A stretch of DNA of 64,000 bases from a virus (lineage: Duplodnaviria > Caudoviricetes): positions 1 through 64,000 of the IMG/VR virus record IMGVR_UViG_3300029288_000150; one strand, written 5' to 3'. The translations under genes and the position numbers were made by a program. This document shows, one piece after another, positions 11,437 to 49,905 of this stretch. The first letter of the stretch is position 1, and each line of letters begins with the position of its first letter. The notes below the pieces were generated by a model that saw only the letters and a program-made list of their open reading frames with translations, did no database searches and had not been told where the DNA came from.

Positions 11437-11458
11437 CTCAGCAATCCGTTGTTAGCGC

Positions 11459-32076: not shown

Positions 32077-32077
32077 G

Positions 32078-32728
32078 ATGACCGGGGCACGCGCTCCTGA
32101 GACCGGCCGCCGGGTGCTCGTCCTGGCGCCGCACACAGACGACGGGGAGTTGGGGGCCGGGGCGACGGTCGCCCGCCTCGTTGAGGAGGGGGGCCGCGTC
32201 TGTATCCTGGCCTTCTCGACGGGCCACCCCAGCCGGGGGTCGACGCACGAGGAGGCCCTGGCGGCGGCGGCGGCGCTGGGCGTCGCCGAGCCCGGGGGGC
32301 GCGTCCACTTCTGCAACCTGGAGGCCCGCCGCTTTCCCGAGCGGCGCCAGGAGATCCTGGAGGCCATGATCTGGGCAAGGGGGGCCTGGGAGCCCGACCT
32401 GGTATTCTGCCCGTCCAGCTTCGACCGCCACCAGGACCACCAGGCCGTCCACGCCGAGGCGATCCGGGCATTCCCCCGGGTAACGCTCCTGGGCTATGAG
32501 CTGCCCTGGGGCTGCCGGGGCTTCCACGCCACCTGCCTGTGGCCCGTCGAGCGGGGCCACGTCGAGGCGAAACTCCGGGCGCTGGCCTGCTACCAGAGCC
32601 AGGCACGGTATGCCTACGTACAGCCCGCGGCGATCTGGGGGCTGGCAACCGTGCGCGGCCTGGGCCTGGGGCTGGATGGCCAGGGCTACGCGGAAGGGTA
32701 CGAGGTGCTGCAATGGGTGAGCAAGTAA
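32078..32728 (+). CDS. PIG-L/LmbE family de-N-acetylase
   Basis: LAPHTDDGELG and HQDH metal-binding motifs. Confidence 0.92.
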   Translation: MTGARAPETGRRVLVLAPHTDDGELGAGATVARLVEEGGRVCILAFSTGHPSRGSTHEEALAAAAALGVAEPGGRVHFCNLEARRFPERRQEILEAMIWARGAWEPDLVFCPSSFDRHQDHQAVHAEAIRAFPRVTLLGYELPWGCRGFHATCLWPVERGHVEAKLRALACYQSQARYAYVQPAAIWGLATVRGLGLGLDGQGYAEGYEVLQWVSK

Positions 32729-34260
32729 GAGTCGGCCTTATCGGCTGCGGGGCCTGGGGGAAAAACATCCTCCGCAACCTGCTAACCCTGCCCGGGGTGG
32801 ATCTGGCCTGGGTGTGCGATCCCAACCCGGACGGCAACGAGAGGGCGGCCGCCATGCTCCAGGCGGCGGCCGCCGATACCACGGTGTATATGTCCCCGCC
32901 GCCCCTGTGCGGGGTGGACGCCGTGTGCATCGCTACCCCGCCCGCGACCCACTACGACCTGGCCCTGGCGGCGGTGCGGGCCGGGGCCCACGTCTTTGTC
33001 GAGAAGCCGCTGACCCTGCACATGGACGCCGGGGAGCACCTGGCCTGGGAGGCCCAGGCGGCCGGGCGGGTGCTGATGACCGGCCACCTCCTGCGCTACC
33101 ATCCGGCGTTCGTCAAGCTGCTGGCCATGGTCGACGCCGGGGAGTTGGGCCGGCTGGAGTACGTCTACTCCAACCGCCTGAACCTGGGGCGGGTGCGGCC
33201 CCGGGAGTCGGTCCTGTGGTCGTTCGCCCCGCACGACGTGTCGATGATCCTGGCGCTGGCCGGGGACCGGCTGCCCGCCCGCGTCCAGGCCCAGGGCGCC
33301 GCCTACCTGCAGGCCGGGGTGCCGGACGTGACCACGACGCTCATGGACTGGGGGCCCGACGATCTCCGGGCGCACATCTTTGTAAGCTGGCTCAACCCGC
33401 TCAAGGAGCAGCGCCTGGTCGTCGTCGGGGAGCGGGGCATGGTCGAGTTTCGGGACGATGGCCTGGCCCCCCGGCTCATCCACTGGCCCTACCGGGTGGA
33501 ACGGGTTGGCGCCGGCCGGGATGCGCCGCGGCCCGTCGCCGGGCAGCCCGTCGCCCTGGACGTGCCCCACGAAGAGCCCCTGGCGGCGGAGCTGGCCCAC
33601 TTCCTGGCCTGCTGCCGGGGGGAGGCCGAGCCCCTGACGGGGCCTGCGGAGGCGTTGCGGGTTTTGCGGGTTTTGGCCGCCGCCCAGGAGTCCCTGGAGG
33701 TGGGCTGCCCGGTGCGCCTCGGCGGGGAGCCCTGGCCAGCGCGGGGCCCGGCGCCCGACGCGCCCCGCGGCCAGGACGAGGAGGGCCCGGGGGCCGGCTG
33801 GTGGGCCCATCCCCTGGCCGACGTCGAGGCGGGGGCGGAGATCGGGGCCGGGACAAAAATCTGGCGCTGGACGCACGTCCAGGCCGGCGCCCGCATCGGC
33901 CGGGATTGCATGATCGCCCAGGGCTGCTACGTGGCCCCCGGGGCGGTTATCGGCGACGGCTGCCGCATCCAGAATGGGGTAAGCATCTTCCAGGGGGTGA
34001 TCCTGGAGGCGGGGGTCTTTGTCGGCCCCCACGCCGTCTTTACCAACGTCCGCCGGCCGAAAGCGGGCGAGCGCGGCGACTTCGAGGAGACCCGCATCTG
34101 CACAGGGGCGGCCATCGGGGCCAATGCCACGGTACGCTGTGGTGTGACCATCGGTCAGGGGGCCATGGTGGGCGCCGGGGCCGTCGTGACCCGCGACGTG
34201 CCGCCGTGGGCCACCGTCGTGGGCAATCCGGCCCGCATCTGGGACATACAGGAGGAATAG
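32713..34260 (+). CDS. Fusion of Gfo/Idh/MocA 3-dehydrogenase (WbpB/WlbA-like) and hexapeptide N-acetyltransferase (WbpD/WlbB-like)
   Basis: GLIGCGAWG, VFVEKPL, FAPHDVS; then AEIGAGTKIWRWTHV, IQNGVSIF, GPHAVFTN, VVGNPARI. Confidence 0.9.
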   Translation: MGEQVRVGLIGCGAWGKNILRNLLTLPGVDLAWVCDPNPDGNERAAAMLQAAAADTTVYMSPPPLCGVDAVCIATPPATHYDLALAAVRAGAHVFVEKPLTLHMDAGEHLAWEAQAAGRVLMTGHLLRYHPAFVKLLAMVDAGELGRLEYVYSNRLNLGRVRPRESVLWSFAPHDVSMILALAGDRLPARVQAQGAAYLQAGVPDVTTTLMDWGPDDLRAHIFVSWLNPLKEQRLVVVGERGMVEFRDDGLAPRLIHWPYRVERVGAGRDAPRPVAGQPVALDVPHEEPLAAELAHFLACCRGEAEPLTGPAEALRVLRVLAAAQESLEVGCPVRLGGEPWPARGPAPDAPRGQDEEGPGAGWWAHPLADVEAGAEIGAGTKIWRWTHVQAGARIGRDCMIAQGCYVAPGAVIGDGCRIQNGVSIFQGVILEAGVFVGPHAVFTNVRRPKAGERGDFEETRICTGAAIGANATVRCGVTIGQGAMVGAGAVVTRDVPPWATVVGNPARIWDIQEE

Positions 34261-34261
34261 C

Positions 34262-35068
34262 ATGGCCAAGGACAAGGAATACCAACTGACATCTACCGAA
34301 CTCGCCCAGCGGGTGACAACCCCGCTGCGCGGCGCCGCCGGCCTGAGCATCATCGGGCCCGACGGCAAGCCCTGGACGCTGGCGGAGCTATCCGCCTGGT
34401 GGGGGGCCGAGATCGAGGTCGTCGAGCCGGAGCCCCACGCCCAGGCGGCCTACATGGTCCGCGCCCACGAGTTGCGCGTGGCCGACGGCCCGGCGACGCA
34501 GATCGTCCGGGTCATCGACCAACACGGCAACCCCATCGATCGGGCGGCCGTCTGTCGCTGGTGGACCGACGCGCCCCACCTGCCCGCGCTGCCCGCCGGC
34601 TGCTATGCGTCCTACCTCCGGCCCCAGGCCGTGGTGGGCGAGACCAACGCCGGCGGCGACGTGGGCTTCGGCATGGGCAAGGGCGATATGCCCGGCAGCT
34701 CGGGCGTCTGGGTGGCCAACTGCCAGGCGCCGAGCGGGGGCGTGTTCGGCCTGGGGTGGAAGCCGTTCACCAACCACGCCGCCGTGGTCGTCACCTTCCA
34801 GGTCCTGCCCGTCGGCGGCGGGCCGGTCGTGCCCCCGCCCGAGCCGGTCGATACCGATCTGGAGGAGATCCGCCGCCGGGCCGAGACCGCCGTCCAGGTG
34901 CTGACCCTGGCCGAGGGGCTGGGCGGGGAGACGCGGGACGCGATCCAGGTCGCCCGCGCCCGCCTGGATGCCGCGGAGCAGCGGCTGGTCAACGCCCTGA
35001 CCGGCGTCAAGTCGGCCCTGGAACTGGCCCAGGAGATCCAGATCCTGGCCGAGCCGGGGGAGGGGTAG
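34262..35068 (+). CDS. Hypothetical protein, beta-rich domain plus C-terminal coiled coil
   Basis: No enzyme motif; GLGWKPFTNHAAVVVTFQ then PPPEP linker and helix. Confidence 0.7.
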   Translation: MAKDKEYQLTSTELAQRVTTPLRGAAGLSIIGPDGKPWTLAELSAWWGAEIEVVEPEPHAQAAYMVRAHELRVADGPATQIVRVIDQHGNPIDRAAVCRWWTDAPHLPALPAGCYASYLRPQAVVGETNAGGDVGFGMGKGDMPGSSGVWVANCQAPSGGVFGLGWKPFTNHAAVVVTFQVLPVGGGPVVPPPEPVDTDLEEIRRRAETAVQVLTLAEGLGGETRDAIQVARARLDAAEQRLVNALTGVKSALELAQEIQILAEPGEG

Positions 35069-35071
35069 GCC

Positions 35072-36217
35072 GTGGACGACATCCTGCCCGGAACCCCCAT
35101 CCCGCCCCTGGACCTGGCGGCGCAATACCGCCAGTGCCGGGAGGCCGTCGACGCCGCCGCCCTGCGGGTGCTCGCCTCGGGGCGGTACGTCCTGGGCGAC
35201 GAGGTCAAGGCCCTGGAGGCGGAGGTGGCCCACATCTGCGGCACGGCCGATGCCCTGGGGGTCGCCTCGGGCACCGACGCCCTGCTGCTGGCGCTGCTGG
35301 CGGCGGGCGTTGGGCCGGGGGACGAGGTCATCACCTCCGCCTTTTCCTTTATCGCCACGGCGGCGGCCATCTCGCGCACGGGCGCCCGGCCGGTCTTTGC
35401 CGACATCGAGCCCGAGACGTTCAACCTGGACCCGGCGGCCGTCGAGGCGGCGGTCACGCCCCGGACGCGGGCCATCGTGCCCGTCCACGTCTTCGGGCAA
35501 ATGGCGGACGTGTCCTGGCTGGGCGACGTGGCCCGCGATCACGGCCTGCTCATCGTCGAGGATGCCTGCCAGGCCCTGGGGGCCACCTGGGGCGGGCGGG
35601 CGCCGGGGGCCACGAGCGCGGCGGCCTGTTTCTCGTTCTACCCCACCAAGAACCTGGGTGCGGCGGGGGACGGGGGGATGGTCGTCACCAACGACCCGGA
35701 CCTGGCCGACCGGGTGGACGTCCTCCGCCGCCAGGGCTGCCGGCAAAAGTACCACGCCGAGGCCCTGGGGTTCAATAGCCGGCTGGACGAGCTGCAGGCG
35801 GCCATCTTGCGGGCCAAGCTGCCCTGGCTGGCCGACTGGACCCTGCGGCGGCGGTGGCTGGCGGCCATCTACCGCCGGGGGCTCTCGGGCCTGCGGGCGG
35901 TCGAGGCCCCGGCGGAGACCCTCGGGGCCGTCCACGTCTACCACCAATTCACCGTCCGGGTCACCGGGGAGGGCCGGCGCGACGGGCTCCTGGCCCACCT
36001 CCAGGCCCAGGGCATCGGGGCGGGGGTCTACTACCCGGAGCCCATCCACCGGCAGGCGCTGTACTCCCGAGAGTACGCCGGCGTCCACCTGCCCGAGACG
36101 GAGCGGGCCTGCCGGGAGGTGCTGTCCCTGCCCATGTATCCCGAGCTGGCCGAGCGCCAGGTGCGGGCCGTGTGCCGCGAGGTGCGGGCGTACCTGGAGG
36201 GGGCGGGCGATGGGTGA
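35072..36217 (+). CDS. DegT/DnrJ/EryC1/StrS PLP aminotransferase (WbpE/WlbC-like)
   Basis: SGTDAL, EDACQA, FSFYPTKNLGAAGDGG, FNSRLDELQAA, VYHQF. Confidence 0.95.
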   Translation: MDDILPGTPIPPLDLAAQYRQCREAVDAAALRVLASGRYVLGDEVKALEAEVAHICGTADALGVASGTDALLLALLAAGVGPGDEVITSAFSFIATAAAISRTGARPVFADIEPETFNLDPAAVEAAVTPRTRAIVPVHVFGQMADVSWLGDVARDHGLLIVEDACQALGATWGGRAPGATSAAACFSFYPTKNLGAAGDGGMVVTNDPDLADRVDVLRRQGCRQKYHAEALGFNSRLDELQAAILRAKLPWLADWTLRRRWLAAIYRRGLSGLRAVEAPAETLGAVHVYHQFTVRVTGEGRRDGLLAHLQAQGIGAGVYYPEPIHRQALYSREYAGVHLPETERACREVLSLPMYPELAERQVRAVCREVRAYLEGAGDG

Positions 36218-36488
36218 GGAACTAGACCCGATCATGGCAGCCTTCCTAAAGTCTATGCAGAGGTCGAGCGACTATATCCTGGGCAGCCTGGGGATCAGGG
36301 TAGACCTGGGAGAGATTTCAGAGTACAAGCGTTATGCCCGGCTGCGCGACCGCCTGGGGCGCATGACTCGCTTTCGGCGCTGGTTATCCTGGCAGCTGCG
36401 GGATGAACTCCTTTACAGGGAAGCGATGGCCCATCAAGCGGTCTTTCATGCAATCCTGGAGAAGGGGCAGGAGGTACTCCATGCCTGA
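36210..36488 (+). CDS. Hypothetical protein
   Basis: GGAGG RBS; overlaps both neighbours; lower GC. Confidence 0.5.
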   Translation: MGEELDPIMAAFLKSMQRSSDYILGSLGIRVDLGEISEYKRYARLRDRLGRMTRFRRWLSWQLRDELLYREAMAHQAVFHAILEKGQEVLHA

Positions 36489-37635
36489 CAAGTTAACCGT
36501 CGTCGTCACCGCCGCCGGCTGCCCGGGCGGCCCGTCCGTAGTGCGGGCCCTGCGAGAGGGCTTCCGCGTGGTCGCCACCGACCGCGACCCGGAAGCCTCG
36601 GGCCGGTTCTTTGCCGACGCCTTCCACGTCGTGCCCGGGGGCAACGAGCCCGGGTTCGTGGAGGCCCTCTTGGACGTGTGCGCCCGGGAGGGGGCTGCGG
36701 CCCTGGTGCCGGAGTCCAGCGGCGAGGTGCTGGCTGTGGGGGAGCGGCGGGCGGACTTTGAGGCCCAGGGCGTCAAGGCGCTGGTGAGCGAGCCCGGGGC
36801 CGTGGCCGTGGCACTGGACAAGGCCAGGACCTACCAGGCCCTGGAGGGGGCGGGAGTGCCCCTGCCCCGGTGGAAACTCGTCGGGTCGGAGTACCCGCCG
36901 CGCTCTGATGACCTTTACCGCATCATGGAGGCCGCCCACGGGTTGGGTTTCCCCCGCGAGCCCGTGGTCCTGAAACGCCCGACGGGCAAGGGCGGGCGGG
37001 GCTTCTGGATTGTAGAGCCCTGGGGTTACTCCGGGCCGCGCATAGGCCAGGACTTGCGGACCTGGCCCAACGCCCAGCGGGTGAGAATGGACGAGGTGGC
37101 CGCCTGGGCCAACTATCGCCTGAGCCGGGACCAGGGCCTGGGGCGCTGGCTGGTCATGGAGTACCTGGAAAACGACCCCGCCCGCCCCGACACGGCCGAC
37201 CTGTATGGGACGGCCTTTGGCTACACCAAGATCCGGGGGGACTGCCGGAACGGCGTCCACTTCCGGCACGAGGCCCGCTTCGATCCCGAGCTCTTGGGCA
37301 TGGCCCGCCGGGCCGTGGAGCGCCTCGGCCTGGAGCACTTTGTCAACGTCCAATTCATGGGCGGCAAGCTCCTGGAGGTCAACCCCAGGATTAGCACCCA
37401 GATCCTGGCCCCGGGCTACAACATGCCCCTGGCGGGGGTACAGCTCGCCCTGGGGCTGGTGGACCAGGTGACGGCCACCCTGCCCGACGGGACGCGGGCG
37501 GGGTACTATCTCGACCTGCGGAGCTACACGCCGGCCGGCCCAGTTGCGGGCGGTTGCGGCGGGTGCGGTTGTGGCGGCGGCGCGGCGTGCGACCGCCGGC
37601 ATTGTGCCCCCGGCCCGGGCGGGGCGGGGGCCTGA
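36481..37635 (+). CDS. ATP-grasp ligase
   Basis: LDKARTY, VLKRPTGKGGRGF, VMEYL, NVQF, LEVNPRIS. Confidence 0.88.
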   Translation: MPDKLTVVVTAAGCPGGPSVVRALREGFRVVATDRDPEASGRFFADAFHVVPGGNEPGFVEALLDVCAREGAAALVPESSGEVLAVGERRADFEAQGVKALVSEPGAVAVALDKARTYQALEGAGVPLPRWKLVGSEYPPRSDDLYRIMEAAHGLGFPREPVVLKRPTGKGGRGFWIVEPWGYSGPRIGQDLRTWPNAQRVRMDEVAAWANYRLSRDQGLGRWLVMEYLENDPARPDTADLYGTAFGYTKIRGDCRNGVHFRHEARFDPELLGMARRAVERLGLEHFVNVQFMGGKLLEVNPRISTQILAPGYNMPLAGVQLALGLVDQVTATLPDGTRAGYYLDLRSYTPAGPVAGGCGGCGCGGGAACDRRHCAPGPGGAGA

Positions 37636-37650
37636 AAGGAAGGGCAAACG

Positions 37651-38286
37651 ATGGACGAGAGCGAGATGGACTTTGTCAAGGACGTGCGCCGGGCGCTGCG
37701 GGCCGACGAACCGCCCGCCCTGGACCTGCCCCTGGGGGAGGAGTACCCCGGCTGCGTGGTGGCCCCCGACTTCCGGCACGGGGCCAACTTCAAAATCGGG
37801 CGCTTCTGCGTTATCGAGGAGGGCTGTATCGTCGGGGATGACGTGACCATGGGGCATTACGTCCTGCTCAAAAAGGGAACCGTGATCGGGGATCGGGTCT
37901 TTGTCGATTCCTACGTAAAGAGCAGCGGCCAGAACCGGATCGGGGACGACGTCACGCTCCGGTTTAACGCCACGATCGCCCGCGAGGTGACCGTCGAGGA
38001 CGGGGCCTTTATCAGCCCCAACGTCATGACCGTCTACTCGACCCACCAGGGCGAGAAGCGGGGCGGGACGGTGATCGGCGCCGGCTGCCACGTCGGCACC
38101 AACGCCGTGCTGGGGCCCAACGTCCACCTGGCGCCGGGCACCGTGATCGGGGCGCTGGCCTACGTGAACAGGAATATCGACGAGCCGGGCATCTACGGCG
38201 GCATCCCCGCCCGCCTGCTCAAACCCGGCCTGCACGCCGCCACGCCCGAGGCCAGGGCGACCTACATCCAGGACTACAAGAAATGA
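37651..38286 (+). CDS. Hexapeptide-repeat (LbH) acyltransferase
   Basis: Repeated IG/VG hexapeptides, YGGIPARLL. Confidence 0.9.
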   Translation: MDESEMDFVKDVRRALRADEPPALDLPLGEEYPGCVVAPDFRHGANFKIGRFCVIEEGCIVGDDVTMGHYVLLKKGTVIGDRVFVDSYVKSSGQNRIGDDVTLRFNATIAREVTVEDGAFISPNVMTVYSTHQGEKRGGTVIGAGCHVGTNAVLGPNVHLAPGTVIGALAYVNRNIDEPGIYGGIPARLLKPGLHAATPEARATYIQDYKK

Positions 38287-38921
38287 GCGAGCCGGTGGCC
38301 TGTGTCCTCGAGGCCCGCGCCGTCTTGCGCTGGGCCCTGCAGCAATACCCCGAGCCGGGCCGCGTGGCCATGACCTCGGCCTTCGGCCTGTCGGGCTGTG
38401 CCCTGATCCACCTGGTCTACGGGGAGCTGGGCTGGGAGGTGCCGGTCCTGTTCGTGAACACCGGGCACCTGTTCCCCGAGACCCTGGAGACGCGGGACCG
38501 GCTCCGGGAGCGGTACGGGCTGGACCTGGTCGAAATCGAGGCCAGGGGAAAGATGCCCCCGCCCGGCCATGCCCAGTGCTGCCAGAAACGCAAGGTCGAG
38601 CCCATGCGGGCGCTCCTGGAAAAGGTGGCCCCCGCGGCGCTCCTGTCGGCCCGGGGGCGATTCCAGGCCGTCACCCGCCTTGACCTGCAACTCGTCGAGT
38701 GGGAGCGGCGGCCCCTGCGCGTCAACCCCCTGGCCAACTGGGCCCAGGGGGACGTCGAGGCTTACGTCCGGGACAACGGCGTGCCCTACAACCCCCTGTA
38801 CGACGAGGGGTATTTTTCCATCGGCTGCCGGCCCTGCACGCGGGCGGTCAAGGCCGGCGAGGACGTGCGGGCCGGGCGCTGGGACGGCCTGGGCAGGGTC
38901 GAGTGCGGGCTGTGGACGTGA
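38283..38921 (+). CDS. cysH: APS/PAPS reductase (CysH-like)
   Basis: TSAFG, NTGHLFPETL, CC...SIGCRPCT, RAGRW, ECGLW. Confidence 0.9.
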   Translation: MSEPVACVLEARAVLRWALQQYPEPGRVAMTSAFGLSGCALIHLVYGELGWEVPVLFVNTGHLFPETLETRDRLRERYGLDLVEIEARGKMPPPGHAQCCQKRKVEPMRALLEKVAPAALLSARGRFQAVTRLDLQLVEWERRPLRVNPLANWAQGDVEAYVRDNGVPYNPLYDEGYFSIGCRPCTRAVKAGEDVRAGRWDGLGRVECGLWT

Positions 38922-38924
38922 GCC

Positions 38925-39674
38925 ATGCTCGCGCATGAGTGGGTCAAGGTCCACCCCGGGCTGGAGGGCACCTGGGACGTGGTCCTGCGGCTGGGGCCGG
39001 GTGACGGCCTGCTCCTGGCCGGGGGCCTGGCGGAGCGGGCCTGGGCCGTGGCGTTTGCCGAGAAGGTGCGCGGGGCGCTCCGGGCGTACGCCGGGGACGC
39101 CATCCGCGCCGGGGAGAGCGAGCCCGCCCGGCTCACGGACAACCTGTACCTGGCGGCCGGGCGGCGGGCCTTTCGGCCGAACAATGCCCGCCTGCGGGCC
39201 ATGGCCGGCCTGTGCGCCGGGCCCCGGGTGCTGGACGTGGGCTGCGGGGCGGGGGATCTGCTCCTGATGCTCCGCGAGGGGGACCGGCACCTCCACCTGG
39301 CCGGCACGGAGATCAGCCGGGTCGCGGCGGGCATGGCGCTGGGCCGGGTGCGGGCGGTCCACGTCCACCTGACCGACGGCATCCCGCCCGGGCCGTGGAA
39401 CACGATCGTCATGGGCCAGCTCCTGGAGCACCTGGCCGACGACGAGGCCATGGTCGACGCGGCGGCGGGGGAGCTGGTCCCCGGCGGCCGGCTGGTGGTC
39501 TCCGTGCCCAACGGCCCGGCCGTCCAGAGCCCGGACCACGTCCGGGAGTACACGCCCCGGACGCTGCGGGCCCTGTTGCGGCGCGTGGGCCGGGTGCGGC
39601 CCCGGCACTGGGGCGGGGAGGAAACCAGGCTCATCATGTGGGCGGAGAAGGACGGGCGGGCCGAGGGGGGATGA
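38925..39674 (+). CDS. Class I SAM-dependent methyltransferase
   Basis: VLDVGCGAG, QLLEHL, LVPGGRLVVSVPN. Confidence 0.9.
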   Translation: MLAHEWVKVHPGLEGTWDVVLRLGPGDGLLLAGGLAERAWAVAFAEKVRGALRAYAGDAIRAGESEPARLTDNLYLAAGRRAFRPNNARLRAMAGLCAGPRVLDVGCGAGDLLLMLREGDRHLHLAGTEISRVAAGMALGRVRAVHVHLTDGIPPGPWNTIVMGQLLEHLADDEAMVDAAAGELVPGGRLVVSVPNGPAVQSPDHVREYTPRTLRALLRRVGRVRPRHWGGEETRLIMWAEKDGRAEGG

Positions 39675-41309: not shown

Positions 41310-41319
41310 GGACTTGTCA

Positions 41320-42138: not shown

Positions 42139-42165
42139 TCCCTTTCAGCAATCCGTTGCTTTCGT

Positions 42166-42537: not shown

Positions 42538-42538
42538 G

Positions 42539-42847
42539 TTATCCCCCTGCCTCCAACTGCTCCCGCAGCCGCTCGACCTCAGCCTCTGCCGCGCCAATTT
42601 CGCAATCGTTGGCGTGCGTCTCAGGGTCGCCACACACCGGGCAGATGCATTTCTCGCGCCGCTCGTTGAGACGCTGGTCTAACATCTGGTCGATGTTGTC
42701 CGACTGCCCGTCGGGGTCGCCGTGAGCCAGCGCGTGCAACTCGTCAACCTCTGCGACCGACAGGTAAAAAACCGGGGCGCGGTCGGTGGTCCCGTATGTG
42801 ATTCGGACCCAGTCGTCGTCCAGTGTCGCAGATAAGAACTTTGCCAT
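42539..42847 (-). CDS. Hypothetical protein with Cys/His cluster
   Basis: CICPVCG...HANDC; GGAG RBS. Confidence 0.6.
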   Translation of the reverse strand: MAKFLSATLDDDWVRITYGTTDRAPVFYLSVAEVDELHALAHGDPDGQSDNIDQMLDQRLNERREKCICPVCGDPETHANDCEIGAAEAEVERLREQLEAGG

Positions 42848-42884
42848 TTCTGAAACTCCCTTCTTGGAAATCGTTGCTTTACCG

Positions 42885-43055
42885 CTACTTGGCGGTGTCT
42901 GGTGCAAGCCGCTTGGCATTCTCCAGAAACAACATGATGTCGTTCAGATGGCCGATGTAACCCATTTGCTTGCCCCTCGGCAATGCCTGGAACATTTCCT
43001 CAACTGCTTCAATCGTGCGCTGTGCTTCCGCTTTGGTGAACTCTCCCTGTGCCAT
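42885..43055 (-). CDS. 56-aa hypothetical protein
   Basis: Hand translation MAQGEFTKAEAQRTIEAVEEMF...; AAGGA RBS; first gene after minus promoter. Confidence 0.55.
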   Translation of the reverse strand: MAQGEFTKAEAQRTIEAVEEMFQALPRGKQMGYIGHLNDIMLFLENAKRLAPDTAK

Positions 43056-43108
43056 TTCAAATCCTTTCCGCCGCTCGGATTGCGGCTTTCCGTTGTTAGA
43101 CCTGCCCC

Positions 43109-43170
43109 ATTATACCGCATCTTTGGACAATTGTCAATAGCAAACTTGCCAACCGTGGACAATTGGCAAC
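43109..43170 (-). promoter_or_regulatory. Sigma70 promoter with two operator copies
   Basis: Minus TTGACA (43137-43132)-17-TATAAT (43114-43109); operators at 43123 and 43155. Confidence 0.85.
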
Positions 43171-43205
43171 CGGGCGGCCGGTTTCTCGACTCGCCCGACA
43201 AAACC

Positions 43206-44621
43206 TGTTAGGAAAAGTTGAAAAGTGAACCGTTCGCGACGCGTTTAAAGTTCAAAGGTGAACTCGAAATTCGCCCAGCGGGAGGGCCACAGAGTGCACC
43301 ATCTTGCCCTTCCACCAGATGCGGACCTCCATAACCTGCTTGGCCGTATCAGGCACGAGATGGACTTGGACTTCCTCGTAGAGGTCCACCTTCGGAACTT
43401 CGATGGTGTGATTGAATAGCGAGATCCGTCGATACCCGTTGACGGTTCTGGACTCGCGCAGGCAAAAGACATCCTTGGGTGACGTGTAGGGCTTGGGCAA
43501 GGAGAACGGGCGGAAGAGGGTGTTGCCTTCTTTCCTGGCCCTATTGAAGCGGACACTGGGGATCTCTTTGGTGGTGGAGTGGACCTGGTGGTGGTTGTAG
43601 CGGGTTACCTCTTCCTTGAGCACAGCCCGAACCTCCTCCACGGCTGATATCTTTTCTAAAGCGCAGGTTCGAACAATGCGATCTTGCAGCCACTGGTAGG
43701 GTCTCTCGACCTTCCCCTTGGCCTGGGGAGACAGGGCATAGGTCACATCCACGCCCAAGACGCGCATCATCTTGCTCCATTGCGTTTCTACATCATCAGT
43801 TTGCAGAACGTGCTTGCGCCAGACACTGTCTCTCCCTTGAACGAAGCGGAAGACACGCAGGGAGTCTACGTAGTAGCGCAAAGGGATGCCGTAAGCCCGC
43901 ACGAGGGCCTGAACGGCCTGGATATGTGCCCAGGTCGTGTCACTGGGAACAAAGTCTGCAAACAACAGCATTCGGCTGTAGTCGTCGATGGACGTGATCA
44001 GGCTCCACTTCTCTCCAGCGAAGGGAGACCATAGGTGCAGCGAGGAGTCGTGTTGAATCAGAGCGCCGATGGAAGCGGTCAGCACCTCACGGTCGTGTGC
44101 CTTTCGCTTCTTCCGTGGTTTGTAACAATCCAGGCGCTTGGCGCGGTCGATGACGGTGGTCACAGAGACCTCGATGCCCTTCTTCTTGAGACGGTCGCGT
44201 AGGGCTGAGTAGTTGTAGCCGGAGATCGGCAAGCGTTTGTCCTCGACGATCTCCTTCTCGCGCAGCAACTCCCGCTCGATCTGCGCCTCAGCGGCGACCG
44301 ACAATCTATCGGGTGTATGCCTTTCGTAGCCGACGGAGAAAGCTTCAGGGTCTTGCCGGTACTCTTTGAGCAGGGCAAAGAAGCGAGTCTTGCCAATGTC
44401 CAGCATCTCCTGAATCTCGGCTCTTTCCAGTAGGCCCTGGCAGTATCCCTTGAGCAGCACCTTGACCTGGTCATCTGTGAACCGCTTGTGCAGCTGTGTC
44501 ATTTCGTCCCTCCTCATCTCGAGATCGACCTGCTGGGACTCTACCACAATCGGTTCACTTTTCAACTGGAAAGAGTTCACTTTTCAGCCTTAAATGGTTC
44601 ACCTTTCAACTTTCAACCACA
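43206..44621 (-). mobile_element. IS1202-like (IS481-related/ISNCY) insertion sequence with 16-bp target duplication
   Basis: Ends TGT...ACA, imperfect TIR 20/26, subterminal GTTCACTTTTCA-like repeats, flanking DR CTCGCCCGACAAAACC at 43190-43205 and 44622-44637. Confidence 0.85.
43252..44502 (-). CDS. DDE transposase
   Basis: HTH N-terminus, LIQHDSS, IDDYSR, YYVDS, SPQAKGKVER; GAGGAG RBS before MTQLHK. Confidence 0.92.
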   Translation of the reverse strand: MTQLHKRFTDDQVKVLLKGYCQGLLERAEIQEMLDIGKTRFFALLKEYRQDPEAFSVGYERHTPDRLSVAAEAQIERELLREKEIVEDKRLPISGYNYSALRDRLKKKGIEVSVTTVIDRAKRLDCYKPRKKRKAHDREVLTASIGALIQHDSSLHLWSPFAGEKWSLITSIDDYSRMLLFADFVPSDTTWAHIQAVQALVRAYGIPLRYYVDSLRVFRFVQGRDSVWRKHVLQTDDVETQWSKMMRVLGVDVTYALSPQAKGKVERPYQWLQDRIVRTCALEKISAVEEVRAVLKEEVTRYNHHQVHSTTKEIPSVRFNRARKEGNTLFRPFSLPKPYTSPKDVFCLRESRTVNGYRRISLFNHTIEVPKVDLYEEVQVHLVPDTAKQVMEVRIWWKGKMVHSVALPLGEFRVHL

Positions 44622-44637
44622 CTCGCCCGACAAAACC

Positions 44638-44685
44638 TTGACAAACGCCGGGCGGTATGATATAATGCCGGGGACGGTTGTCCAC
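44638..44685 (+). promoter_or_regulatory. Head/tail operon promoter with operator at the start site
   Basis: TTGACA (44638)-17-TATAAT (44661); GGGGACGGTTGTCCAC 44670-44685. Confidence 0.85.
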
Positions 44686-44744
44686 GTCGCGTTCGTGCGT
44701 TCGGGACAACTGTAACAGCATAGACCATCGCTGCGCCACAGTAA

Positions 44745-44783
44745 GCGCCTTTCCGGCTTTGCACCCGGAAAGGCGTTTTTTTT
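44745..44783 (+). terminator. Intrinsic terminator in the leader of the head operon
   Basis: Stem GCGCCTTTCCGG / CCGGAAAGGCGT followed by T run to 44783. Confidence 0.85.
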
Positions 44784-44799
44784 GTGTTCGGAGGGGGCC

Positions 44800-46368
44800 A
44801 TGCCCTGGAGTGTGACCAAGACCGGCAAATGCCCGGCCTCGAAACCCTGGGGGGTCGTGAAAGAGGGCGGGGAGCTGGAGGGCTGTCACGAGACCAAGGC
44901 CCAGGCCGAGGCCCAGCAGGCGGCCCTGTACGCATCGGAGGAACGGGGGATTATGAGCAAACTTCGAGAGTTGCGCGACCGGGTCCTGGCGCTGTTCCGC
45001 GAGGCCGGGATCGACGAGGAGCCGGGCGGGGACAGGGAGCGGGCGCTGAGCTCGGGCCAGATCCTGGAGCAGTTCTGGTACTCGCTCTCCGACTCCGAGG
45101 AACACTGGTCCGCCTGGCCCCTGGACATCTACCTGGACGGCGGCGAGACCTACGCCCTGGTGGCCGAGCGGGGCAGGCTGTACCGCGTGGGGCTGGGCGT
45201 GGGGGATGGCGGGGTGACGGCCGGGGAGTGGACCGAGGTGGAGACCGTCCACCAGCCGGTGGGCCGGACGCGGGTCTCCCGCCAGGCCGACGGGCGTTAC
45301 CGCTGGCTCAACATCTCGGCCACGGCCACCCTGAACCGGGTAGCCGAGATCGACTCCCGGGCGCTCTTTGACGACTTTATCCGCCGGGCCGAGGAGTCCG
45401 GCGAGTACCCCGGGCGGGACTTTTACCACCTGGGAGAGGCGGCCCGTCTGGGCCAGTGTGACTACCTGGCGCGGGATGACGCGGTCCTGATCAGCTCGGG
45501 GCTTTTCGACGAGACGCCCCTGGCCCTGGCCGTGGCCCGCGCCATCGAGGCGGAGCCGGGGGAGTGGGGGGACTCCATCTCCTACCGGCCCGAGGCCGAG
45601 GCCGAGCTCGTGGAGGTGGCCGAGGGGGTGCGCGTCCCGGTCTACAACGCCGGGGTGCTGCGCTACATCTCGACCCTGCCCGAGAGCCGGGCGGCCAGCC
45701 TATTTACCACGGCAACCGTGGGGGAGGTAACGAGGATGCGAGCAGACATCAAGGAGGCGCTGGAGCGCCTGAAAGGTCACGGCCTGAGCGACGAGGAGAT
45801 CGCGGCCATCGAGGGCGCGGTCGACGGCACAAACCGGGCCATCCAGGACGGCGGGATCATCAACCGCGAGGAGCCCCCCGACGCCGAGCCGGAAGGGGAC
45901 CAGGACCCGGAGCCCGAGCAGGCCGGGGACGTGGCCCGCGAGGAGCCCGAAGCCGAGGGGGAACCCGAAGCCGAGCCCGACCCGGAACCCGAAGCCGGCC
46001 GCGAGGTCGAGCTGGACGACGAGGCCCTGGCGGCCATCGTCGAGCGCGTGCTGTCCGGCGAGGCCGTTGCCGGCCTCCAGGCGCAGGTGGCGGCCCTGAC
46101 CGAGCAGGTGGACGGCCTGGCCCGGGAGTTGTCCGAGGCCCGGGCGTTGAACGTCAGGCGCTCCGCCGAGGTCGACGGGCGCCTGGTCGCGCTGGAGAAG
46201 ACCGACGAGGAGAAGCGGCGCACCTGGCAGGCGGACCTGCCGCCCCGGGCCCGCGACTCCCTGCGCGTCACCTACCGGCCCCGCGAGGCCAACGCCGGCG
46301 GGGATGGCGACGGGCCGGCCAACCTGGCGGCCGTGGCCGAGCAAACGATGAGCAAATGGGGCGCCTAG
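44800..46368 (+). CDS. Probable prohead protease/scaffold protein
   Basis: Position before capsid gene; N-terminal GCHETKAQAEAQQAAL module, central beta domain, acidic Pro/Glu linker and coiled-coil C-terminus. Confidence 0.65.
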   Translation: MPWSVTKTGKCPASKPWGVVKEGGELEGCHETKAQAEAQQAALYASEERGIMSKLRELRDRVLALFREAGIDEEPGGDRERALSSGQILEQFWYSLSDSEEHWSAWPLDIYLDGGETYALVAERGRLYRVGLGVGDGGVTAGEWTEVETVHQPVGRTRVSRQADGRYRWLNISATATLNRVAEIDSRALFDDFIRRAEESGEYPGRDFYHLGEAARLGQCDYLARDDAVLISSGLFDETPLALAVARAIEAEPGEWGDSISYRPEAEAELVEVAEGVRVPVYNAGVLRYISTLPESRAASLFTTATVGEVTRMRADIKEALERLKGHGLSDEEIAAIEGAVDGTNRAIQDGGIINREEPPDAEPEGDQDPEPEQAGDVAREEPEAEGEPEAEPDPEPEAGREVELDDEALAAIVERVLSGEAVAGLQAQVAALTEQVDGLARELSEARALNVRRSAEVDGRLVALEKTDEEKRRTWQADLPPRARDSLRVTYRPREANAGGDGDGPANLAAVAEQTMSKWGA

Positions 46369-46406
46369 TCCCCCCCAGGGCGGCACGACATAGAGGAGGC
46401 TTTACC

Positions 46407-47714
46407 ATGAACGCGAAAACCCGCGATCTGACCGTGTCGGACCTGGCCACCACCTACGGGTGTTGTGGCCTGTATGATATGTGTTCCGACGAGGACCTGG
46501 TCAGCCTGTCGCTCCAGGGCGCCGATCAGTTCCTGGACTGGCTCGGCTGGCAGGGTACGGACGTCTGCGTCATCAAGAAAAACTTTGTGACCTGGATCCG
46601 CCCCGAGCAGGCCGGCGGCGTCTGCACCGACGGCTACACCGCGGACCCCTGCGCCGACGCCAACGGCGTGGAGTTCGGCGTGTGCGACTTCACGCTCGAG
46701 GACTTTGCCCGCATCCGGCGCCATGGCCCCGTGCGCGACGTCACCAAGAACGACCTGCGCTACTGCGACCGCCAGCCGCGCTATCGCCTGGATGGCTCGC
46801 AGATCGCCGACAACCGCGAGTTCGACATCATCGCCACGGCCGAGGTCATGCTGCAGGACGTGCGGCGCATGGTCATCACCGGCAACGGCGCGGTGGCCGG
46901 CCAGGCCGACGGCCTGGAGAACCTGGTGGTCACGGGCTACACCAACTCGGCCGGGCGGCGCTGCGCGTCGATGGACTCCTACGTCATCGACTGGAACCAG
47001 AACGGCATGGACGGCGGGGCGGGCATCACCGTCAACGGCGACCCCATCGCCGCCACCTGGGGCTTTGTCGACGCCCTGCTGGCCGTGTTCCGCCGCGTGC
47101 GGAAGCGCATCCGCCTGGCGCCCATGCTGGCCTCCCGGCTGGGGGCGGGCCTGGACATCATCCTGCTCCTGCCGTCCCACCTGACCAACTGCGTCCTGAA
47201 CGCCTACACCTGCTGGAGCGTGTGCCCGGGCCGCCAGTACAACGAGGCCAACCTTAACACCTACGAGGCCCGCAACTTCCGCAACTCCCTGCTGGGCGGC
47301 CGGTTCGGCGCGGGGGCCATCTCCCTGGACGGGACCACCATCCCGCTCCTGGAGTACGACTGGGAGCTCATCAAGGGCCCGAGCTGCGGGGACATCTACC
47401 TGCTCATCGGCGGCGTGGGCAACGTCAAGGTGCTGAACGGCCAGCACCTGGACATGGCCGGCGCCCCCCGCGCCTACCCGGGGGCCGAGTACCGGGTCTC
47501 GGACGGCGGGCGGTTCCTGCACTGGACGATCACCGATCACACCTGCGTCCAGGAATACCAGGAGTTCGCGCCGCGGATCCTGTGCTGGGCGCCCTGGGCC
47601 CAAACCCGCTTTATGGACGTGTGCTGCGACTCGGTGCTCGATCCTCTGAGCCCCGATCCGTGCGAGACGTCCTTCTTCCCGGAGACGTCGTTCAGCGTCG
47701 CCGCCTGCCCCTAG
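46407..47714 (+). CDS. Probable major capsid protein (Cys-rich)
   Basis: 435 aa, strong GAGGAGG RBS, follows scaffold; ITGNG..GQ.DGL motif resembles HK97-fold capsids. Confidence 0.7.
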   Translation: MNAKTRDLTVSDLATTYGCCGLYDMCSDEDLVSLSLQGADQFLDWLGWQGTDVCVIKKNFVTWIRPEQAGGVCTDGYTADPCADANGVEFGVCDFTLEDFARIRRHGPVRDVTKNDLRYCDRQPRYRLDGSQIADNREFDIIATAEVMLQDVRRMVITGNGAVAGQADGLENLVVTGYTNSAGRRCASMDSYVIDWNQNGMDGGAGITVNGDPIAATWGFVDALLAVFRRVRKRIRLAPMLASRLGAGLDIILLLPSHLTNCVLNAYTCWSVCPGRQYNEANLNTYEARNFRNSLLGGRFGAGAISLDGTTIPLLEYDWELIKGPSCGDIYLLIGGVGNVKVLNGQHLDMAGAPRAYPGAEYRVSDGGRFLHWTITDHTCVQEYQEFAPRILCWAPWAQTRFMDVCCDSVLDPLSPDPCETSFFPETSFSVAACP

Positions 47715-47790
47715 TGGCGGGGCGTAGCCAGGTGGCCGGGGTGGGCCGTACCCGCCCCGGCCCCGGCGAAATCCGGGGAGACGCGGGGGC

Positions 47791-49905
47791 ATGATCGAGA
47801 ACCTGACGGTTGTGGTGCCGTTCTGGAACGGGCAGGCGACCCTGCCGCGGCTGCTGGCCAGCCTGCCGGCGGGGCTGCCCGTGATCGTCGTGGACGATCA
47901 CTCCGACAAGCCGCCCCAGACAAAAAGGCCCGGCGTGCGGGTCATCCGCCCGCCACAGAAGGGCTTTTTCGCCGGGGCGGTCAACGCGGGCCTGGCGGCT
48001 TGCGGGACCGACGTCCTGGTCCTGAACCAGGACGTGTGGCTCGAGGGGGAGCAGTGGCTGGCGGCCGTGGCAAAGATGCGCCGGACCTACGCCGTCTTTG
48101 GCGACGGCGTGGAGGCCCATCCCGCGTGGCCGCGGGGCTACGTCCACGGGACATTCATGTTCATGCGCCGGGACGCCATCGCCGCAGTGGGCGGCCTCAA
48201 CGAGCGGGACTATCCGCTGTGGGGCTGCACCTGCGAGTGGCAGCTCCGGGCCTGCCGGGCCGGCTTCCGGGCCCACGTCTCGCGGAAACTCTGGCGCCAG
48301 TGGTTCGGCCACGAGGGCCGGCACGACGTGGGGTCCAGGGTCAACCCTGGACCCACGCGTGGGTCCAGGGTCAAGGGCGGGCGCCGGGCGCGGTATGGGT
48401 CCTCCATCCGGGAGGCCATCGGCCGCTGGCCGGGGCAGCGGGCCCGCTTCCTGGCCGTGCCGCCCGCGGTCTCGGTGATCGTGCCCTGTTTCAACTATGG
48501 GCGGTACTTGCCGGACTGCATCGCCAGCCTCGTGGGCGGGGACACGTCCCTGGGGCGCTGGGAGCCGCCGGGGCAGACCTTCCAGAGCTTCGAGGTGATC
48601 ATCGTCGACGACGCCTCGACGGACGATAGCTGGCAGGTGGCCCAGGCCCTGGCCGACCCGTGGAAGGGCGTCCACGCCATCCGGCTCCCCAGGAACCGGG
48701 GCACGCCGGGGGCCATCAACGCCGGGATCGAGCGGGCCCGGGGGGAGTACATTCACATCCTGTCGGCTGACGATATGCGGGAGCCGTGGGGTCTGGAGGT
48801 GCTGTATCGCGCCTGCCAGGAGCACCCGGGCATGGTCGCCTATGGCAACGTGCGGATCTTTGGCGACGGCCAGCGGGGCCGGATGCTGACCCTGCCGGGG
48901 TACGACTTTGACCTGGTGCTGCACAAAAATCCCATGCCCGCCGGGATCATGTACCCCCGGGCGGCCTGGGAGGCGGTCGGGGGCTATCCCGAGGTGATGA
49001 AACTCGGCCGCGAGGACTGGGCCTTTAACATCCGCCTGGGGGCGGCCGGCTACTGCGGGCACCACGTCGGCGACTCGGGCAACCTCTACCGCCGCGAGGG
49101 CCAGAACCGGAGCTTGCGGACGGGCAACGTCCACCGCAGGGAGGCGGCCGGCGGGCCGGGCGCCGTCGCCCGGGGGACGTTCAAGGCGCAACTGAAAAAG
49201 CTGTACCCGAGACTGTATGCAGGTTGGAGGCCGCCAATGTGCTGCGGACGACAAAATACACCCAAGGCCACGCCCCGAGCCCGGGCGCTGCCGGGGGCGG
49301 CGCTGGAGCCCGTCCTGGGCAGCCGGCGCCAGCCGGAGATCGGCACCCCGGCGCCGGGCATGGAGTGGCTGGAATACGTCGGCGGGAACGCCGGCAACTC
49401 GCGCTGGATCGGCCCGGCGACGGGCACGCGCTACATCTTTGGCGGGGGTCGGCCCGTGGGCCAGGTGTACGCCGAGGACGCCAGGGGGCTCCTGGACCTG
49501 CGGCACAACACCCGGGCCGTGTTCCGCCGCTACAAGCTGCCGGCGCCCGTCGCGCCTGCCGCGCCCGCGCCTGCCGTCGCGGCTGCGGCTCCCCGCGGCA
49601 AGCCCACGGCCCCCAGGATCGCGGGCACTCCGAACCCCGCGGAACGGGAGCCCGAGCTGGTGGACGTGGCGGCCCCGGAGCCTGAACCGCGGGCCGGGCC
49701 CGTCCCGGCCGACGACCTGACCAGGATCGCGGGCGTGGGGCCGGCGACGGCCGCCAGGCTGGACGCCGCGGGCTTTGGCGCCTTCGCCACCCTGGCGGGG
49801 GCCTCGCCCGAGACGGTGGCCCGGCTGGCCGGCATCCCGCGGGCCACGGCGGAGCGGGCGGTAGCCGGCGCGGCGGCCGTGCTGTCCGGGGAGGGCGACG
49901 GATGA
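47791..49905 (+). CDS. Double GT2 glycosyltransferase fused to MCCG module and HhH domain
   Basis: VVVPFWN..IVVDDHS..NQD; VIVPCFNY..IIVDDASTD..LSADD; C-terminal DDLTRIAGVGPATAARL. Confidence 0.9.
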   Translation: MIENLTVVVPFWNGQATLPRLLASLPAGLPVIVVDDHSDKPPQTKRPGVRVIRPPQKGFFAGAVNAGLAACGTDVLVLNQDVWLEGEQWLAAVAKMRRTYAVFGDGVEAHPAWPRGYVHGTFMFMRRDAIAAVGGLNERDYPLWGCTCEWQLRACRAGFRAHVSRKLWRQWFGHEGRHDVGSRVNPGPTRGSRVKGGRRARYGSSIREAIGRWPGQRARFLAVPPAVSVIVPCFNYGRYLPDCIASLVGGDTSLGRWEPPGQTFQSFEVIIVDDASTDDSWQVAQALADPWKGVHAIRLPRNRGTPGAINAGIERARGEYIHILSADDMREPWGLEVLYRACQEHPGMVAYGNVRIFGDGQRGRMLTLPGYDFDLVLHKNPMPAGIMYPRAAWEAVGGYPEVMKLGREDWAFNIRLGAAGYCGHHVGDSGNLYRREGQNRSLRTGNVHRREAAGGPGAVARGTFKAQLKKLYPRLYAGWRPPMCCGRQNTPKATPRARALPGAALEPVLGSRRQPEIGTPAPGMEWLEYVGGNAGNSRWIGPATGTRYIFGGGRPVGQVYAEDARGLLDLRHNTRAVFRRYKLPAPVAPAAPAPAVAAAAPRGKPTAPRIAGTPNPAEREPELVDVAAPEPEPRAGPVPADDLTRIAGVGPATAARLDAAGFGAFATLAGASPETVARLAGIPRATAERAVAGAAAVLSGEGDG
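48345..48370. repeat. 26-bp perfect palindrome, copy 2, with flanking 14-bp direct repeat
   Basis: GGGTCCAGGGTCAA at 48331 and 48361 (30-bp period, in frame). Confidence 0.9.

Follow-up and report, generated by a model that had tools for sequence, protein, structure and literature searches.

A predicted cytoplasmic system for glycosylating the virion in the head operon of an uncultured temperate tailed phage

Introduction

To our knowledge, glycosylation of the virion has so far been shown among tailed phages only for a few mycobacteriophages, which carry it out with transferases alone. Here we describe a predicted glycosylation system of an uncultured temperate tailed phage, represented by the 75,219-bp IMG/VR record IMGVR_UViG_3300029288_000150 (rated 100% complete), of which the first 64 kb form the window that we analysed (positions 1 to 64,000). 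The system comprises a block of sugar-biosynthesis and tailoring genes inserted in the head operon (32078-40414) and a double GT2 glycosyltransferase gene that follows the capsid gene (47791-49905). Glycosylation of capsid and tail tube has been reported for the mycobacteriophages Che8, Corndog and Myrna (Freeman 2023, as cited in PMC12363180 and PMC12619734), and PMC4351075 describes an O-methyltransferase and three glycosyltransferases (gp35-38) located in Corndog between the genes for portal and protease. These cassettes resemble the present locus in that soluble glycosyltransferases and methyltransferases likewise lie within the structural operon, and those of Corndog also share the place near the portal. 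However, they consist of transferases only and use host sugars, whereas the phage described here adds 3-oxidation, transamination and N-acetylation and, unlike them, encodes a deacetylase, an ATP-grasp ligase, an acyltransferase and CysH. The glycosyltransferases on the two sides have no detectable similarity (Che8 gp110, Corndog gp38), and the viral lineage and probable host phylum differ. The mycobacteriophage particles have been shown to be glycosylated, whereas the present system is predicted from its genes.

Sugar synthesis of the kind predicted here is known from bacteria and from much larger viruses. The WbpB/WbpE/WbpD (WlbA/WlbC/WlbB) and GnnA/GnnB pathways use the same three chemistries, but they are set in an O-antigen or lipid A locus and not, as here, in a phage head operon. 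Compared with the Wbp/Wlb pathways, the dehydrogenase of the phage is fused to the acetyltransferase and is more GnnA-like than WlbA-like, and neither WbpA nor WbpI accompanies it. Giant viruses (Mimivirus/Megavirinae and the chloroviruses) encode both the synthesis of rare amino sugars of bacterial type and glycosyltransferases for their particles, according to PMC10117803, PMC9614988 and PMC4691112. Those viruses infect eukaryotic hosts, have genomes of several hundred kb or more and use other sugars and enzymes, whereas the virus analysed here is a 75-kb tailed phage.

Results

Enzymes encoded by the sugar block

The phage DNA has a GC content of about 70%, which creates many spurious open reading frames (ORFs), and gene models were therefore fixed by frame analysis of third-position GC (GC3). 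Domains were assigned with Pfam, NCBIfam, PHROG and PDB profile and sequence searches. The region 32078-40414 holds nine to ten translationally coupled genes, all on the + strand, with a portal-position gene on one side and a conserved head gene on the other. The spacing between neighbouring genes runs from -16 to +15 nt, which confirms the coupling, and their GC3 of 0.87-0.96 matches that of the structural genes. A preliminary description of the window had noted this tight coupling and structural-gene-like composition, and had named the enzymes; both observations hold, the latter through Pfam, NCBIfam and PDB matches together with intact motifs. None of the block proteins has a transmembrane segment, and no promoter-like site was detected within 31000-41300 with a sigma-70 consensus, which may not fit the host.

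The first gene (32078-32728) encodes a PIG-L/LmbE-family de-N-acetylase (PF02585, E = 1.3e-17, 65 bits against a gathering cut-off of 28.2) with intact metal-binding motifs, (P)HTDD and HQDH. Its nearest solved structures are TT1542, BshB, diacetylchitobiose deacetylase and Dbv21, and its top NCBIfam match is BshB1, far under the cut-off of that model. The gene that follows (32713-34260, starting at ATG 32713 rather than at 32539 or 32814) encodes a WbpB-WbpD-like fusion of a GFO/IDH/MocA 3-dehydrogenase with an LbH 3-amino-sugar N-acetyltransferase, as assigned by Pfam and PDB matches. Its C-terminal domain (residues 365-508) matches WlbB (3mqg, E = 9e-39). The N-terminal domain matches GnnA over the full length (7bvj, E = 7e-17) and WlbA in the Rossmann part only (3q2k, E = 3e-12), and its top NCBIfam match is the archaeal UDP-GlcNAc 3-dehydrogenase, again far under the cut-off. 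Bacteria commonly have the same fusion architecture, and thousands of homologues are about 47% identical. The aminotransferase gene (35072-36217) encodes a nucleotide-sugar C3 aminotransferase of the DegT family, dependent on pyridoxal phosphate (PLP) and WbpE/DesV/QdtB-like (PF01041, E = 4e-122), with the PLP lysine motif SFYPTK. DesV (2oga, E = 3e-98), WbpE (3nyu, E = 3e-84) and QdtB (E = 1e-79), its nearest named solved relatives, are all C3 aminotransferases.

The predicted product of this amino-sugar set is a UDP-2,3-diacetamido-2,3-dideoxy-hexose. The preliminary description had gone further and read the enzymes as a WbpB/E/D route to the 2,3-diacetamido uronate. The aminotransferase and acetyltransferase classes agree with that reading; the uronate is not established, because the dehydrogenase aligns with GnnA from end to end but with WlbA just in its Rossmann part. 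We found no nucleotidyltransferase, UDP-GlcNAc 6-dehydrogenase (WbpA) or 2-epimerase (WbpI), the WbpA and WbpI families being absent in Pfam scans of all large ORFs of the 75-kb genome. The pathway would therefore start from a host UDP-sugar, UDP-GlcNAc(A), and to call the system self-contained, as had been done, is an overstatement.

Between the fusion and the aminotransferase genes lies the gene of a 268-aa protein (34262-35068) with a beta-rich N-terminal domain, a Pro linker and a coiled-coil tail, a gene that the preliminary description had passed over. A homologue occupies the same position in one relative of the block (L016, 57% identity), another lies between the capsid gene and the GT2 gene in a further relative (L015), and the proteins resembling it in the Atlas are hypothetical ones from Chloroflexota and viruses. 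A possible 92-aa ORF (36210-36488) has moderate GC3, overlaps both neighbours by 8 nt and has no counterpart in L016. The ATP-grasp ligase (36481-37635) combines a PylC-like N-terminal domain with ATPgrasp_Ter by Pfam; its start is probably 36481 and not 36403, since GGAGG precedes ATG 36481 and the homologue alignments begin there. It is followed by a second LbH hexapeptide acyltransferase (37651-38286; PF00132, E = 2e-22), for which QdtC is the nearest solved structure, and by CysH (38283-38921), an Fe-S-type assimilatory adenylyl sulphate/phosphoadenylyl sulphate (APS/PAPS) reductase that scores 184 bits against the equivalog cut-off of 154 (NF002537) and has both the CC...CxxC motifs and the catalytic ECGL. 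Two methyltransferases dependent on S-adenosylmethionine (SAM) close the block: MT1 (38925-39674; Methyltransf_23, E = 6e-13) and MT2 (39674-40414; Methyltransf_25 and Methyltransf_11, E about 1e-14), the frame of the latter being, by GC3, that of the ORF at 39212 rather than that at 39700.

The preliminary description had placed the block between the portal and a 'gpF-like' gene. Its position is confirmed, and the names of the two flanking genes need qualification. The 568-aa protein encoded at 29598-31304, directly after the large terminase (TerL) gene, has no Pfam, PHROG or PDB match; we take it to be the portal from its position, size and conservation (34-66% identity in relatives). The 'gpF-like' gene (40383-41021) has no Pfam match even at E<=1 and matches only phrog_24776 (E = 2e-40); its product carries a C-terminal Cys/His motif. 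Both flanking genes, like the capsid, GT2 and DUF1360-like genes described below, lie on the + strand.

A glycosyltransferase linked to the capsid gene

The major capsid protein (46407-47714) was recognised through its fold. By sequence, nothing was found in the Pfam and PHROG libraries, in a profile search of PDB sequences or by tblastn against phage records. When 1.8 billion representatives were searched with a profile, 474 relatives emerged, and AF2 with an 85-sequence alignment returned a model with a pLDDT of 90.3, compared with 38 when eight sequences were used. Foldseek found 253 PDB matches to this model at E<=0.001, the best being the capsid proteins of SU10, PhiTE, A-1(L), Mic1 and HK97 (E = 4e-9 to 1e-7). 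The modelled fold thus confirms an HK97-fold capsid protein, in agreement with the preliminary call.

The gene that follows (47791-49905) encodes a soluble protein with two GT2 domains, a conserved 'MCCG' domain of about 100 aa, a Pro/Ala linker and a helix-hairpin-helix (HhH) domain (HHH_5); no transmembrane segment was predicted in it. The preliminary description had reported a two-domain GT2 behind the capsid gene, and this linkage is kept across the lineage. We compared 16 relatives of 42-66% GC, namely eight IMG/VR contigs, six contigs of Chloroflexota/Gemmatimonadota metagenome-assembled genomes (MAGs) and two close relatives obtained by identity look-up. The GT2 homologue stands directly after the capsid gene in ten of the 16 and 1-6 kb downstream in five more; the contig of the sixteenth stops just past the capsid gene. 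HHH_5 is also present on the GT2 of the two closest relatives (L028 and L029), and HhH is missing from the GT2 of most others. The top PHROG name of the protein is 'GtrB-like', the match being limited to the generic GT-A N-terminus. A possible paralogy of the 'MCCG' part with the gene at 53883-54137 was considered and discarded as too weak (E = 0.004, 17/43 identities).

Directly after the GT2 gene lies the gene of a small, hydrophobic, DUF1360-like membrane protein (49902-50246). The same succession, GT2 and then a small membrane ORF, occurs in six relatives with flanking sequence; the two that were tested match DUF1360 (E about 1e-9), and the product of 49902-50246 is a weak homologue of one of these matching proteins (E = 2e-4).

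The block is layered

Relatives of the block were found through identity look-ups and a metagenome scan; IMG/VR scans with the ATP-grasp ligase and the fusion, by single protein and by alignment, gave no relatives, and the block as a whole had no megablast match among phage records. In L011, TerL is followed by portal, the phrog_24776 gene, scaffold, capsid and GT2 in that order, with about 300 nt from the portal to the phrog_24776 gene. Portal and phrog_24776 genes being adjacent there, the 8.3-kb block is an insertion at that junction, as had been supposed from the frequent adjacency of the flanking genes. Four near-complete relatives (CheckV 95-100%, 64-75 kb) have between two and six GT2 domains each, and no DegT, PIG-L or PAPS reductase was found in any of them.

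The closest relatives, L028 (a 73-kb contig) and L029, share 74% (capsid), 82% (TerL) and 64-66% (portal) identity with the window. Their portal junction holds PIG-L, a 119-aa ORF, the ATP-grasp ligase, the LbH acyltransferase and CysH, after which L028 has a methyltransferase 60% identical to MT1 and L029 two other ORFs, one of them weakly GT1-like. The proteins of this tailoring module are 50-77% identical between the window and these two viruses, the second LbH protein 73-77%, and CysH is kept in the module of L028, L029 and L033 at 58-69% identity. Both L028 and L029 also have a gene for two GT2 domains and an HhH domain after the capsid gene. Judging from these comparisons, the tailoring module is inherited with the virus.

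The amino-sugar genes are distributed differently. Neither L028 nor L029 has the dehydrogenase/acetyltransferase fusion, the 268-aa protein or the aminotransferase. This trio is whole on one metagenome contig, L016, whose extended form of the block runs PIG-L, fusion, 268-aa protein, DegT and ATP-grasp at 49-60% identity, and partial on another, L033, which reads DegT, ATP-grasp, LbH, CysH, phrog_24776 gene and scaffold. Upstream of the phrog_24776 gene, which is conserved in L028, L029, L033, L065 and L073, two more distant viruses keep the module: L065 has the PIG-L/ATP-grasp pair and L073 an ATP-grasp gene inside which the contig begins. Four ATP-grasp sequences are about equidistant (60-67%), and therefore the trio was either ancestral and then lost or has moved between lineages. 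By these sequence comparisons the block is composed of two layers, an older conserved PIG-L/ATP-grasp/LbH/CysH/methyltransferase module and a WbpB/E/D-like trio as an add-on, and the earlier treatment of it as a single unit does not stand.

A separate insert is present in L028 (L028:6366-9784), where a 739-aa GH25 lysozyme-Flg_new_2 protein and a 400-aa protein without assignment are encoded between PIG-L and ATP-grasp, in the same slot as the amino-sugar trio of the window.

Bacterial origin of the tailoring pair

PIG-L stands directly upstream of ATP-grasp in 33 of 69 metagenome loci, and the pairing also holds outside phages. In all four bacterial contexts that were examined, the ATP-grasp homologue lies in a surface-polysaccharide cluster; every one of these clusters includes a Polysacc_synt flippase and further glycosyltransferases, DegT aminotransferases and Wzy_C are present in three of them, and genes for sulphate activation or sulfotransferases in two. 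By gene context, the PIG-L and ATP-grasp genes form a conserved pair that the phage has taken over from surface-polysaccharide clusters of bacteria; we know of no characterisation of the chemistry of this pair. The phage keeps only the cytoplasmic enzymes of such clusters, without their flippase and polymerase. Nowhere in the 75-kb genome is there a match to GtrA (PF04138), the Polysacc_synt flippase or Bac_transf, which extends to the full record the earlier remark that neither flippase nor GtrA is present. As a separate observation, the PIG-L-like gene upstream of ATP-grasp (L034-L071, L031, L102, L103) makes this a widespread pair in the surface-polysaccharide clusters of high-GC bacteria, and precomputed Pfam tables leave the 213-aa gene upstream of ATP-grasp unannotated.

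Comparison with cultured phages

Among 50,697 phage records there was no full-length match to the fusion and no match to the ATP-grasp ligase. DegT occurs in 21 of these records, none of them in a comparable setting. Aphanizomenon phage Yong-DA, the best cultured-phage match to DegT, was set aside: it is plasmid-like and carries genes for Wzy, Wzc and export. No description of a tailed-phage module for amino-sugar synthesis and tailoring that is linked with virion glycosylation was found in a literature of which our coverage is incomplete.

Candidate glycosylation genes in the tail module

Further candidate enzymes lie in the tail module, beyond the window. A gene at genome positions 66136-67605 (L018:3136-4605) encodes a fusion of GT2 with RMNT_CmcI (rhamnosyl-O-methyltransferase/CmcI), and a weakly GT-A-like gene follows it. 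A scan of the genome for sulfotransferases, which covered PF13469 and not PF00685, gave no match, and the tail-region ORFs looked at in this connection match no Pfam family. A neighbouring tail protein (genome 68856-71321, L018:5856-8321) combines a LamG-like part, about 190 residues of SPSEGTP/SPSA repeats and a Gp37-like part, and its mucin-like Ser/Pro linker is, from its composition, an obvious candidate acceptor for O-glycosylation.

Discussion

A proposed pathway

We propose that the products of these genes act in the cytoplasm to glycosylate the phage's own particle, and put the probability of this prediction at roughly 0.55. At the core of the system, common to the lineage, the soluble GT2 encoded beside the capsid gene would move sugar from UDP-sugars onto virion proteins late in infection; this GT2 carries a conserved C-terminal domain that appears to be non-catalytic and, in this sub-clade, a putatively DNA-binding HhH tail. 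The tailoring module would then act on amino sugars. Its PIG-L-like enzyme would take the N-acetyl group off a GlcNAc-type residue, the ATP-grasp ligase would re-acylate the freed amine, or amidate a carboxylate, with an amino acid or a small acid, and the second LbH acyltransferase and the SAM-dependent methyltransferases would cap the product. This deacetylate-then-ligate logic is proposed because the gene pair is conserved and the properties of both families are known. CysH, which travels with the module, may supply reduced sulphur. Those PIG-L relatives whose substrates are known (BshB, chitobiose deacetylase, Dbv21) characteristically act on GlcNAc glycoconjugates and not on nucleotide sugars, and part of the tailoring may therefore follow transfer. 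Where the add-on is present, the fusion and the C3 aminotransferase would turn host UDP-GlcNAc or UDP-GlcNAcA, the presumed substrates, into a 2,3-diacetamido sugar. In the tail, the GT2-CmcI fusion and the GT-A-like gene product probably glycosylate the Ser/Pro linker of the adjacent tail protein.

Support for glycosylation of the particle comes from the late-operon wiring of the block on the same strand, with overlapping stop and start codons and no internal promoter-like site, and from the solubility of all its enzymes together with the absence of export machinery. Glycosyltransferase and methyltransferase genes stand inside the structural operon at several places, namely the double GT2, the tail GT2-CmcI gene and the two methyltransferase genes of the head block. 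The capsid identity by fold, the capsid-GT2 linkage in relatives, the two to six GT2 domains of complete relatives and the inheritance of the module with the virus point the same way, and Corndog offers a direct precedent. The GT2-CmcI fusion and the mucin-like linker of the tail module add support on which the preliminary description had not drawn. The preliminary description had likewise concluded that the phage builds its own sugar and coats its particle with it. The enzymes, the insertion, the capsid linkage and the solubility support this in part; the self-containment is overstated, the uronate is not established and the single unit does not hold.

Several points weigh against this interpretation. 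CysH is kept in the module and yet has no known role in glycan synthesis, and the 268-aa protein, which has no Pfam, NCBIfam or PHROG match, has no place in the model. The HhH domain points to DNA and not to protein as the partner of the GT2, and the small membrane protein encoded after the GT2 leaves room for a membrane-associated step. No mycobacteriophage match to the GT2 was obtained at E<=1e-10 (tblastn, 50,697 phage records). The missing promoter depends on the consensus used in the scan and, the virus being uncultured, its glycan is deduced from the genes.

Alternative explanations

The enzymes might instead serve the host envelope, making a modified UDP-amino-sugar or re-tailoring a lipid-linked intermediate that the host flippase and polymerase would export, with an altered cell surface and hence superinfection exclusion, receptor masking or easier release as the outcome. 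In favour of this, the virus encodes a serine recombinase and a tyrosine integrase and is temperate; bacterial surface-polysaccharide clusters are the source of both the fusion and the PIG-L/ATP-grasp pair; and the small membrane protein after a GT2 whose best PHROG name is 'GtrB-like' recalls the Gtr serotype-conversion cassettes, in which temperate phages likewise encode a GT2 followed by a small membrane protein. Nevertheless, we regard such remodelling as unlikely. The genes sit within the late head and tail operons, coupled to structural genes, away from the integrase and without a promoter of their own, whereas the Gtr cassettes lie beside it. There is no GtrA match, GtrC, flippase or priming transferase, the transmembrane helices with which GtrB/ArnC end are missing from the GT2, which matches the PHROG only in its GT-A N-terminus, and the capsid-adjacent position of the GT2 is kept across hosts of 42-71% GC. 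An absence of common function is more doubtful still: the portal/head-gene junction would then be a hot spot for unrelated auxiliary cargo, as its varying contents (in L028 a GH25 gene and one of 400 aa, in L029 one that is GT1-like, and here the amino-sugar trio) and a nearby insertion sequence (IS) might suggest. The cysH gene is a common phage auxiliary gene, and CysH could here be an ordinary sulphur auxiliary metabolic gene. Against this, the module's five functions are found again in several viruses, in unchanged order and at 50-77% identity, the PIG-L/ATP-grasp pairing also exists outside phages, and all members but CysH are glycan enzymes.

We find it about equally improbable that the block is a pathway to a low-molecular-weight thiol or other small molecule for the redox or sulphur needs of a Cys-rich virion. 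Mycothiol and bacillithiol are made by MshB/MshC/MshD and BshB/BshC/NmbA, and these syntheses have a parallel in the set of PIG-L, ATP-dependent ligase, acetyltransferase, methyltransferase and CysH. The top NCBIfam match of PIG-L is BshB1, if far below cut-off, CysH is a true reductase conserved in the module, and there are 19 cysteines in the capsid protein, many of them invariant, and 15 each in the adaptor-like and tail-tube-position proteins. With mycothiol, bacillithiol and teicoplanin-type tailoring the block shares the logic by which a PIG-L/LmbE enzyme frees a GlcN amine that a ligase or acyltransferase then acylates. However, the ATP-grasp ligase is unrelated to MshC and BshC, so that the likeness is one of logic and not of family; AT-rich relatives share the conserved cysteines yet lack PIG-L and CysH; bacterial homologues of the pair lie in polysaccharide and not in thiol clusters; and there is no malate- or inositol-specific glycosyltransferase. 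A variant that joins this chemistry to the particle, in which the tailoring module would build an aminoacylated, sulphur-bearing amino sugar (Cys- or sulfonate-carrying) on virion proteins by mycothiol-like logic, has in our view only a slight chance of being correct. If true, it would give an exceptionally Cys-rich phage particle a covalent redox-active or charged glycan, a protein modification of a kind that is not known from viruses. Least probable of all is that the HhH-bearing GT2 puts the phage sugar on genome bases as a defence against restriction. HHH_5 at the C-terminus of the GT2, shared with L028 and L029, speaks for it, and phage glycosyltransferases that act on DNA are well known (PMC12619734). 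The genome, however, has neither a thymidylate-synthase-like hydroxymethylase (PF00303) nor a PF12851 Tet/JBP protein and hence no hydroxymethyl acceptor, the GT2 of most relatives stands beside the capsid gene without HhH, and the Nuc_deoxyrib_tr, DUF6884, PP-loop and radical-SAM-like genes lie in a separate low-GC early cluster.

Genomic surroundings and host

The late operon starts with the large terminase gene (27119-29587, +; Terminase_6N/6C), which contains a LAGLIDADG intein of about 300 aa (LAGLIDADG_3/Hom_end). Only residues 3-102 and 407-822 of TerL align with L028 and L029, and residues of about 103-406 are therefore the insert. Downstream of the block, the head operon is split by a low-GC insertion on the - strand (41320-44637; GC 0.55-0.62; also visible in the frame plot) with two ORFs without assignment and a 442-aa rve-like transposase (43252-44580), a call that rests on a weak rve_3 match. 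The insertion has no counterpart there in the relatives and does not belong to the sugar system, although it falls within the range given for it in the preliminary description. It is followed by a scaffold-like head gene (44800-46368, +), whose product has an acidic coiled-coil C-terminus and which stands upstream of the capsid gene in all relatives. Ahead of this gene, at 44638-44778, we noted a perfect TTGACA-17-TATAAT with TG extension and then a 14-bp GC-rich hairpin with a T-run; given this promoter, the capsid and GT2 genes may be transcribed apart from the terminase, portal and sugar block.

Seven of the 19 capsid cysteines are invariant in 14 relatives of 41-60% identity, and 15 cysteines each are found in an adaptor-like protein (52788-53882) and in the tail-tube-position protein (54688-56148), whose gene also bears BNR/Asp-box repeats. 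Some members of the capsid family end in C-terminal Ig-like domains (Big_9, PKD). The head-neck region includes a 623-aa protein of lower GC with a ConA-like/Laminin_G_3 lectin-type domain (50853-52724). Among the tail genes, one of 1201 aa has tape-measure size, and Dit-like and Gp37-like tail proteins are present.

Elsewhere the genome carries repressor-like HTH, large serine recombinase, ParM-like, FtsK-like, RusA and HNH genes. The two site-specific recombinases belong to different families, the large serine recombinase lying mid-genome (20312-21958) and the tyrosine integrase near the right end (L018:10109-11155). A lower-GC early cluster on the - strand (10274-14566) holds Nuc_deoxyrib_tr-like, weakly radical-SAM-like, PAPS_reduct-type PP-loop and DUF6884 genes and a 447-aa protein without assignment; this cluster stands apart from the sugar block and may serve to modify nucleotides or DNA. 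An actinophage was assumed at first from the 70% GC, and this was abandoned when the relatives turned out to lie on Chloroflexota/Gemmatimonadota MAG contigs. The tailoring enzymes resemble those of high-GC actinobacteria and the viral relatives sit on contigs of Chloroflexota and Gemmatimonadota MAGs; the host may be a member of the Chloroflexota or a high-GC actinobacterium.

Implications for phage virion glycosylation

The system most likely goes a step beyond the virion glycosylation of mycobacteriophages. If the proposed particle glycosylation is true, the lineage joins phage virion glycosylation with rare-sugar synthesis of the giant-virus kind in a mid-sized temperate phage, and the layering, from the core GT2 through the tailoring module to the amino-sugar add-on, shows how such a system was assembled from bacterial surface-glycan clusters stripped of their export genes. 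Sugar coats alter the recognition of mycobacteriophage particles by antibodies (Freeman 2023, as cited in PMC12363180), and they could plausibly also influence particle stability and adsorption.

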